Source of the DNA: Escherichia coli
Lineage (GTDB): Bacteria; Pseudomonadota; Gammaproteobacteria; Enterobacterales; Enterobacteriaceae
DNA: 64,000 bases
Direction: 5' to 3' (one strand)
Assembly (NCBI RefSeq): GCF_003334335.1
Contig: NZ_QOWQ01000013.1
The translations under genes were made by a program, and so were the position numbers. This document shows, piece after piece, positions 62,052 through 64,000 of this stretch (its first letter is position 1; each line of letters begins with the position of its first letter). The notes beneath the pieces were generated by a model that was not told the origin of the DNA, ran no database searches, and saw only the letters and a program-made list of their open reading frames with translations.

Positions 62052-64000
62052 ATGGCTTCAACAAATGCGCATCAAATAAAAAATAATGATCAAAACTCTT
62101 TATGTGGTCTGGGTGACAAAATACGCCGCCTGACCGCCGGAGTTTGTTTATTTACACAAATTTTTTTCCCCGTCATGGCGACGGCACAAAATGTGGTACA
62201 CGCTAAGCCTCAGACGACAGTTTCATCTCCGTCCCCTCTAATAGAAAATAATACTGTGCCTTACACGCTTGGTGCGCTGGAATCAGCGCAAAGCGTTGCT
62301 GATCGATTCGGTATTTCACTGGAGGAGCTTCGTCGTCTTAATCAGTTCCGTACTTTTGCTCGCGGCTTTGATAACGTGCGCCAGGGTGAAGAGCTGGATG
62401 TTCCGGCAACAACCTTGCAGAAAAGTCATGAGCAACAAAATGCCGTACCGCCTGCGAATGGCGAAAACACGCTGGAGAATCAAATAGCCAGCACTTCGCA
62501 GCGAGTTGGCACCCTGCTTTCACAAGATATGAATAGTGAGCAGGCCAGCGGCATGGCGCGTGGTTGGGCGTCTTCAGAAGCCTCAGGCGCGATGACTGAT
62601 TGGTTAAATAACTTTGGCACTGCGAAAATCTCTCTGGGTGTGGATGAAGATTTCAGCCTGAAAAATTCGCAATTCGACTTCCTGCATCCGTGGTATGACA
62701 CACCCGATTATCTGCTCTTCAGCCAGCATACCCTTCACCGAACAGACGATCGTACCCAGATCAACACCGGTTTGGGCTGGCGTCATTTCACCCCCAGCTG
62801 GATGTCAGGCATCAACCTGTTTTTTGACCACGACCTGAGCCGCTATCACTCCCGCGCGGGGCTTGGCGCAGAATACTGGCGTGATTATCTGAAGTTGAGC
62901 AGCAACGCTTATATCGGCCTGACCGGCTGGCGTAGCGCACCGGAATTGGATAATGACTACGAAGCCCGCCCGGCCAACGGCTGGGATTTACGCGCGGAAG
63001 GCTGGTTACCAGCCTGGCCACAACTGGGTGGAAAACTGGTCTATGAACAATACTATGGTGATGAAGTGGCGCTGTTTGACAAGAATGATCGCCAAAGTAA
63101 TCCCCATGCTATTACCGCGGGCCTCAACTATACCCCCTTCCCGCTTCTGACTCTCAGTGCAGAACAGCGTCAGGGGAAGCAAGGTGAAAATGACACACGT
63201 TTTGCCGTTGATCTGACCTGGCAACCCAGCAGTTCAATGCAGAAACAGCTTAACCCGGACGAAGTGGCCGGACGGCGCAGTCTGGCCGGTAGTCGTTATG
63301 ACCTGATTGATCGCAACAACAACATCGTTCTGGAATATCGCAAGAAAGAGCTGATTCGCCTGAGTCTGCTGGATCCGGTGAAAGGAAAGTCTGGAGAAAT
63401 AAAACCGCTGGTTTCCTCGATACAGACCAAATATGCCCTGAAAGGCTATAACATCGAAGCCGCTGCGCTGGAAGCTGCCGGAGGTAAAGTCAGCACGTCT
63501 GGAAAAGATATCACGGTCACGCTGCCAGGTTACCGCTTCACTAACACTCCAGAAACCGATAATACATGGTCGATAGACGTTACCGCCGAGGATGTAAAAG
63601 GGAACCTGTCACGTCATGAACAAAGCATGGTCGTCATTCAGGCTCCGACATTAAGCCAGAAAGATTCTCTGTTATCCGTTAATCCGCTAACCGTAGCTGC
63701 AGATAAAAAATCGACGACCACATTGACCGTTACTGCGCACGATTCCGACGGAACTCCGGTGCCGGGGCTGGCGCTGCAAACCCGCAGTGAAGGCGTTCAG
63801 GATATCACCCTGTCTGACTGGACAGATAACGGTGATGGTAGTTACACACAGATGCTGACCGCCGGAACGACATCAGGTTCAGTAACACTGACGCCGCAAA
63901 TTAACGGTGAGAGTGCGGTAAAAGAATCCATTGTCGTTAATATCGTCCCTGTTGTCTCATCCCGCGACCATTCATCAATAACAATAGATAACGTATCGTA
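62052..64000 (+). CDS. Intimin/invasin-family inverse autotransporter adhesin, partial (N-terminal about 649 codons; continues past window end)
   Basis: Hand-translated open frame from ATG 62052 to the window end; extended signal peptide, LysM motif (YTLGALESAQSVADRFGISLEELRRLNQF...VRQGEELDVP), beta-barrel region, then Big-type Ig-like repeats (SLLSVNPLTVAADKKSTTTLTVTAHDSDGTPVPGLAL...). Confidence 0.75.
   Translation, partial: MASTNAHQIKNNDQNSLCGLGDKIRRLTAGVCLFTQIFFPVMATAQNVVHAKPQTTVSSPSPLIENNTVPYTLGALESAQSVADRFGISLEELRRLNQFRTFARGFDNVRQGEELDVPATTLQKSHEQQNAVPPANGENTLENQIASTSQRVGTLLSQDMNSEQASGMARGWASSEASGAMTDWLNNFGTAKISLGVDEDFSLKNSQFDFLHPWYDTPDYLLFSQHTLHRTDDRTQINTGLGWRHFTPSWMSGINLFFDHDLSRYHSRAGLGAEYWRDYLKLSSNAYIGLTGWRSAPELDNDYEARPANGWDLRAEGWLPAWPQLGGKLVYEQYYGDEVALFDKNDRQSNPHAITAGLNYTPFPLLTLSAEQRQGKQGENDTRFAVDLTWQPSSSMQKQLNPDEVAGRRSLAGSRYDLIDRNNNIVLEYRKKELIRLSLLDPVKGKSGEIKPLVSSIQTKYALKGYNIEAAALEAAGGKVSTSGKDITVTLPGYRFTNTPETDNTWSIDVTAEDVKGNLSRHEQSMVVIQAPTLSQKDSLLSVNPLTVAADKKSTTTLTVTAHDSDGTPVPGLALQTRSEGVQDITLSDWTDNGDGSYTQMLTAGTTSGSVTLTPQINGESAVKESIVVNIVPVVSSRDHSSITIDNVS

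Follow-up and report, generated by a model that had tools for sequence, protein, structure and literature searches.

The 5' part of iatD, a gene for an inverse autotransporter of the intimin/invasin family, downstream of yjiJ in Escherichia coli

We report the analysis of a 64,000-nucleotide (nt) stretch of Escherichia coli DNA (NCBI RefSeq assembly GCF_003334335.1, contig NZ_QOWQ01000013.1), referred to throughout as the window, whose right edge cuts a long open reading frame that begins downstream of yjiJ. The frame is the 5' part of iatD, a gene that is already known, having been named and partly characterised, and it very probably represents the start of a type Ve (inverse autotransporter) adhesin of 1,746 amino acids (aa) belonging to the intimin/invasin family. 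The present work establishes the identity of the gene and the domain anatomy of its product, and uses these, together with the alleles of other E. coli genomes, to consider whether and how the gene might function.

The open frame and the domains of its product

The yjiJ gene ends at position 61841. The iatD frame opens with the ATG at 62052. An in-frame TAA lies upstream at 61956, with no earlier start codon in between, and the Shine-Dalgarno sequence GGAAGG is found at 62041-62046. From the ATG onwards the frame is free of stop codons for 649 codons, to the last base of the window at 64000, a run that has a probability of 4.5e-14 by chance given the base composition. The window holds the first, promoter-proximal 37% of the gene. 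The fractional GC content is 0.343 in the spacer between yjiJ and iatD, in comparison to 0.507 in iatD; the spacer, which is absent from K-12-type genomes, contains a promoter-like site at 61856-61885, the number of such sites being no higher than the shuffled expectation. The coordinates of the features discussed here are collected in Table 1.

The N-terminus of the product has the features of a signal peptide: a long polar n-region (residues 1-26, including K23, R25 and R26) is followed by a hydrophobic core of 16 residues (27-42) and then by A43-T44-A45 and Q46, and the AlphaFold2 (AF2) model places a helix at aa 22-45. By this heuristic, the N-terminus would be a signal peptide of the extended kind found amongst inverse autotransporters.

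The LysM domain is recognised by a single-sequence Pfam search with an E-value of only 0.37. A phmmer search of the region against the PDB, which returned spurious designed-repeat proteins at the top, was replaced by a family profile and a fold search. The profile, built from the corresponding segments of 25 relatives, matches LysM chains of the PDB with E-values from 7e-12 to 6e-5, amongst them LytE (6.8e-12), the LysM domain of Thermus P60 (4uz2, 1.1e-9), Ecp6, MltD and the periplasmic domain of intimin (2mpw), and 14 of the 25 homologous segments themselves match Pfam LysM at E≤0.001. The AF2 model of aa 62-124 (pLDDT 85.5) adopts a beta-alpha-alpha-beta arrangement whose top fold matches in the PDB are almost exclusively LysM domains, again including intimin 2mpw, with TM-scores of 0.74-0.80 to isolated LysM domains. 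Taken as profile and predicted fold, this points clearly to a LysM domain in the window protein, for which peptidoglycan binding is predicted.

The inverse-autotransporter beta-domain was matched by Pfam IAT_beta (PF11924) with an E-value of 2.3e-109 over model positions 2-279 of 279; the barrel proper, together with the linker that traverses its pore, occupies about aa 185-430. Barrel sequence matches were found to invasin (4e1t, E 1.6e-82) and intimin (4e1s, E 4.5e-68), and the AF2 barrel superimposes on both structures with a TM-score of 0.93 and a root-mean-square deviation of 1.8-2.1 Å over 243 residues.

Immunoglobulin-like (Ig-like) domains follow on the C-terminal side of the barrel. 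The first, aa 434-530, has no Pfam match at threshold; AF2 predicts an all-beta structure for it (pLDDT around 90), Foldseek matches it to the D00-D0 domains of intimin (6tqd, E 2.7e-12) and the alignment to the NCBIfam model intimin_all extends through aa 530. The second, aa 537-631, matches Pfam Invasin_D3 (4.6e-19) and Big_1 (2.8e-8) as well as FdeC (4e9l, E 2.4e-31). Beyond the window, full-length orthologues carry at least nine more Big_1/Invasin_D3 domains by Pfam and then an Invasin_D4 domain, and the last 300 aa of the orthologue in strain 2012C-4221 align to domains D3-D5 of invasin (1cwv, E 4e-12).

These results bear out a sequence-only reading of the window, which had described a long open frame after yjiJ running off the right edge, with an extended signal peptide, a LysM motif, an inverse-autotransporter barrel and at least two Ig-like repeats, and had placed the end of the gene and its C-terminal domain outside the window. 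The frame and the barrel were recovered directly, the barrel by the hidden Markov model search which that reading had proposed, the LysM motif was secured by the family profile and predicted fold, and the signal peptide is upheld at the level of the heuristic given above; in the 1,746-aa orthologues the C-terminal cap lies at positions corresponding to those beyond 64000. Two points call for refinement. Of the repeats it called Big-type, one is found as Big_1 at threshold by single-sequence Pfam, whilst the first Ig-like domain required fold comparison and a third only begins within the window. Similarly, the likeness to intimin, invasin, FdeC and SinH is correct for the family, but the protein itself is IatD and its nearest paralogues are YeeJ and IatC.

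Table 1. Features of the iatD locus and their positions in the window
Feature	Position	Strand	Basis or remark
EspX6-like gene, 712-aa pentapeptide-repeat protein	57361-59499	+	29-41% GC
yjiJ-iatD intergenic region	61842..62051	+	210 bp, 34% GC; presumed promoter
iatD 5' part (codons 1-649 of 1,746)	62052..64000	+	1,949 nt, continues past right window edge
Extended Sec-type signal peptide, aa 1-45 (putative)	62052..62186	+	hydropathy scan, AF2 helix
Site of poly-C tract in other iatD alleles	62229..62236	+	alignments, allele counts; here CCGTCCCC
Periplasmic LysM domain, aa 68-118 (predicted)	62253..62405	+	family profile and predicted fold, beta-alpha-alpha-beta
Inverse-autotransporter beta-domain (PF11924), aa 148-423	62493..63320	+	Pfam, PDB sequence and fold matches
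Ig-like domain 1, intimin D00-type, aa about 434-530	63351..63641	+	AF2 and Foldseek
Big_1 / Invasin_D3 Ig-like domain, aa 537-631	63660..63944	+	Pfam, FdeC match
Start of next Ig-like repeat, aa 632-649	63945..64000	+	cut by window edge

Identity as iatD and placement amongst the inverse autotransporters

Positions 61800-64000 were compared by megablast with 5,426 complete E. coli genomes, and the best-matching of these are 99.4-99.6% identical over the segment. In genomes that are 99.5-99.8% identical at the nucleotide level, the same ATG, beside yjiJ, is annotated in RefSeq as the start of "iatD: inverse autotransporter IatD". The gene of strain 2012C-4221 has a length of 5,241 nt (1,746 aa) and is followed by a convergent kptA, an arrangement shared by NY1601 and SMS-3-5, and all five of the genomes in which the whole-gene annotation was inspected and carries no pseudogene flag have an iatD of 5,241 nt. 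The left flank in the window, with yjiJ and the 210-bp spacer, is arranged as in the annotated iatD loci, the kptA side lying beyond the window edge. Over its 1,949 nt, the window gene differs from that of 2012C-4221 at four positions, of which three are synonymous and the remaining one gives the amino acid change L440M.

The closest comparison to a characterised protein is with the IatD of SMS-3-5 (EcSMS35_4876), with which the window gene has in common its start codon, its position downstream of yjiJ and its order of domains, from signal peptide through LysM and barrel to the Ig repeats. Over aa 1-649, the part of the protein that this comparison covers (the C-terminal 1,097 aa lie beyond the window), 645 of the 649 residues are identical (99.4%), which is above the 98% mark for the IatD orthologue group. 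The substitutions, with the window residue given first, are T154P, R436H, L440Q and S481R.

None of the NCBIfam models for named inverse autotransporters reaches its curated cut-off. The IatC N-terminal model scores 1005 bits with the fragment and 1123 bits with a full-length orthologue against a cut-off of 2400, intimin_all scores 295 and 360 bits, respectively, against 1400, and inverse_SinH, which covers only the barrel, scores 310 bits against 999. At about 77% identity across the N-terminal translocator, YeeJ and IatC are the nearest paralogues; for YeeJ-type proteins the figure is 76-77% over aa 1-640, and for yeeJ at the DNA level it is about 77% over nt 199-1994. Since these models all fall below their cut-offs and the paralogues reach only 76-77%, the protein belongs to the IatD group, and readings of the frame as intimin, SinH, IatC/YeeJ or FdeC were rejected on the grounds of curated cut-offs, identity and locus.

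Comparison with the better-studied members of the family is nevertheless informative. The barrel of invasin from Yersinia pseudotuberculosis is 52% identical to that of IatD, with a TM-score of 0.93, and the C-terminal D3-D5 domains of invasin align to the end of full-length IatD, disulphide cysteine included; unlike IatD, however, invasin is without a LysM domain and has only four Ig-like domains before its cap. Position 417 of the invasin chain, which we take to be the integrin-binding Asp911, is aligned in IatD to an Asn with an Asp adjoining it, and integrin binding is therefore not to be assumed for IatD. The intimin of enteropathogenic and enterohaemorrhagic E. coli (EPEC/EHEC), encoded by eae, has its LysM, barrel and D00 domains in the same order as IatD, and all three were recovered here by fold or profile (2mpw, 4e1s and 6tqd, respectively). 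In contrast to intimin, IatD stands outside the context of the locus of enterocyte effacement (LEE) and of Tir, and its passenger is much longer. YeeJ and IatC have the same architecture as IatD, with LysM domain and lectin-type cap, their 76-77% identity covering the N-terminal module from LysM through barrel to D00, but they are encoded elsewhere on the chromosome and have passengers of other lengths and sequences, the proteins having 2,359 and 2,934 aa in comparison to the 1,746 aa of IatD (PMC6714894).

Proposed export, allelic integrity and expression

Goh et al. (2019, mSphere) named IatD (EcSMS35_4876) and described it as consisting of a signal sequence, a LysM domain, a beta-barrel, Big1 repeats and a C-type lectin cap (PMC6714894). 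The cloned SMS-3-5 protein was seen by immunofluorescence on the surface of a K-12 flu mutant, and its overexpression led to strong biofilm formation (PMC6714894). Beyond this paper, our literature search on IatD returned a single mention in a review.

The mode of export that we propose is drawn from the homology to intimin and invasin, that is, from type Ve secretion. The long Sec signal peptide would direct the protein to the periplasm, where the LysM domain would be retained, bound to peptidoglycan. The beta-barrel assembly machinery (BAM) would insert the 12-stranded barrel into the outer membrane with the linker passing through its pore, and the C-terminal passenger would be exported through the barrel as a rod of about a dozen Ig-like domains. 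The lectin-type cap at the tip of this passenger, which resembles invasin D4/D5, may then mediate attachment at the cell surface.

Whether a given copy of iatD can make such a protein depends on the allele. Codons 59-61, just after the signal peptide, are occupied in many alleles by a poly-C tract of 7, 8 or 9 Cs. The window allele reads CCGTCCCC at this site, the tract being interrupted by two substitutions and in frame, and this interrupted type is found in 101 genomes (the window and 100 others, the best match included). An allele reading G-C7, also in frame, is matched exactly in 84 genomes. In O157:H7, essentially all genomes have C8 (284 exact matches) and the gene is annotated as "frameshifted"; three non-O157 genomes have a C8 frameshift on a different allele background, which brings the C8 total to at least 287 complete genomes. 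A frameshifted C9 was seen in one O157-type allele and a C7 in one O157:H7 genome. Errors in sequencing a homopolymer could account for these two rare variants, whereas the C8 of O157:H7 is too widespread for such an explanation. The tract may be a slippage hot spot or possibly an on/off switch. A frameshift was one of the outcomes that the sequence-only reading had named as refuting it, and at this hot spot the window allele is in frame. The terms frameshift, pseudogene, O157 and disrupted are absent from the main text of Goh et al. (PMC6714894).

Several observations weigh against the view that the window carries a working adhesin gene. Overexpressed IatD gave neither autoaggregation nor binding to extracellular matrix proteins, and its activity was seen only under overexpression driven by isopropyl-thiogalactoside (IPTG) in a K-12 host (PMC6714894); our search of the literature found no report of native iatD expression. 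A promoter and terminator scan of positions 61700-62200 returned two promoter-like sites, where 1.3 were expected, and no terminator. Of the 25 closest alleles, two have an IS3 element inside iatD, and one O157:H7 copy is truncated at its C-terminus. Lastly, the window ends before the remaining two thirds of the gene, receptor-binding end included, so that the intact frame described here is that of the 5' part.

The most probable alternative is that iatD is intact but cryptic, being silenced in its native setting, as might happen if nucleoid proteins acted on the AT-rich sequence upstream of it. The 34% GC content of that region is in keeping with this, as is the dependence of IatD activity on IPTG-driven overexpression, and for the sister gene iatB no native protein was detected even when its transcript was raised by LeuO (PMC6714894). 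Set against it are the high conservation of the coding sequence, over 98% at the amino acid level (PMC6714894), and the finding that only one of the four differences from 2012C-4221 changes an amino acid; both suggest that selection still acts where the interrupted-tract or C7 allele has been kept. We consider a cryptic gene possible, though on balance unlikely.

We view with considerable doubt a more elaborate proposal, in which the slippage-prone poly-C tract switches iatD or repeatedly kills it, the interrupted alleles being locked on, and in which, in addition, the adhesin and a neighbouring effector gene (see below) are kept together as a colonisation module.

Less probable again is that the copy in the window is a pseudogene, broken further downstream by a frameshift, a premature stop, an insertion sequence or a deletion. 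Decay of iatD is indeed common, as the C8 genomes (mostly O157:H7), the two IS3-containing alleles and the O157:H7 copy without its C-terminus attest, and for this reason we leave a slight chance that the copy is broken beyond 64000. However, the site known to be prone to frameshifts falls within the window, where it is in frame and its tract interrupted; 2012C-4221 and SMS-3-5, the two amongst the 25 closest alleles that were fully inspected, have full-length genes of 5,241 nt; the two IS3-containing copies are the only breaks amongst these 25 within the 2.2 kb compared; and a difference of 4 nt from the closest allele over 649 codons, three of them synonymous, is not what would be expected of a gene in decay. 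That the frame belongs instead to another inverse autotransporter (YeeJ, IatC, intimin, SinH or FdeC) is scarcely credible: the N-terminal translocator is common to inverse autotransporters, the IatC N-terminal model being the best-scoring of NCBIfam and YeeJ-type proteins the nearest by identity, but every such model remains under its cut-off, the identity to IatD is 99.4% and the locus is the conserved position of iatD beside yjiJ, with yeeJ and iatC located elsewhere.

Haplotype, distribution and significance

Of the 5,426 complete genomes, 639 (about 12%, or one in nine) contain full-length iatD DNA. A search of K-12 for traces of iatD was negative, the gap between yjiJ and kptA there being 12 bp. 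This agrees with the accessory position that the sequence-only reading had given to the gene by reference to K-12; it is not, however, a lone insertion. Between the end of the DUF3343 gene and the far (3') end of kptA, carriers have 10.4 kb as opposed to 2.2 kb in K-12, the right junction of the haplotype falls within the 3' end of kptA, which itself measures 585 nt in carriers and 555 nt in K-12, and the part of yjiK-yjiJ common to both is only 81.6% identical between them. Across the genomes this yjiK-yjiJ segment is strictly bimodal: identity to the window is at least 95% in 637 genomes and about 81.5% in 4,739, and no genome falls in between.

The haplotype further includes the EspX6-like gene (Table 1), whose O157:H7 orthologue is annotated as the type III secretion system (T3SS) effector EspX6. 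Its product has weak similarity to PipB and PipB2, and the gene is found in 636 genomes and is absent from K-12. The window-type yjiK-yjiJ (637 genomes), about 18% diverged from that of K-12, co-occurs with iatD (639) and with the EspX6-like gene (636), and the three therefore form one haplotype of roughly 10.4 kb. Low GC content marks the EspX6-like neighbour as foreign. That of iatD is ordinary for E. coli and so does not mark it as foreign by composition. The gene is 99-100% conserved where its neighbours range from 95% to 99%.

Two scans of contigs representing one genome per species with degenerate, IatD-specific peptide patterns, the first of which does match known iatD loci, gave no matches; this result includes the E. 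coli representative of the collection and is therefore weak as a negative on iatD outside E. coli.

Some further observations concern the remainder of the window. Over the 25 kb from 39001 to 64000, no complete E. coli genome of the collection exceeds 97.6% identity overall, though several reach 99.6-99.8% over iatD, and the region is mosaic. It contains, at 46579-48672 on the minus strand, in the variable restriction region beside hsdRMS, a gene for a 697-aa protein in which a GmrSD-type (type IV, modification-dependent) restriction endonuclease is fused to DUF5655; the protein scores strongly with PADLOC Orf5 (740 bits) but is not named by NCBIfam. In NY1601 this position is occupied by another GmrSD/DUF262 arrangement. 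The adjacent hsdS (44644-45697) shows patchy similarity to the closest genome, in pieces of 95-96% with gaps, as is expected for a different type I restriction specificity. Between tsr and btsT, about 5.9 kb (28807-34738) are absent from the otherwise collinear NY1601; they encode a HexR/RpiR-type regulator, a sodium/solute symporter, an amidohydrolase and a distant relative of 3-hydroxy-D-aspartate aldolase, and look like a small accessory catabolic island. Lastly, an exact direct repeat of 35 nt (5916-5950 and 6017-6051, 101 nt apart) has a 100% match in the mdtM-rpnD intergenic region of K-12 and is probably an intergenic element of the REP (repetitive extragenic palindromic) type.

The poly-C frameshift that inactivates iatD in essentially all O157:H7 genomes, the interrupted, "locked-on" allele and the tight linkage of iatD to the EspX6-like gene and yjiK-yjiJ go beyond the paper in which IatD was named. 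As additions, the linkage block and the poly-C polymorphism are minor; they say more about other alleles than about the window and leave the identity of iatD unchanged, but could guide the choice of strains for functional work. The gene described here is an accessory adhesin gene, carried by about 12% of complete E. coli genomes and apparently intact over its 5' third in the window, and represents a legitimate, if modest, target for studies of adhesion.

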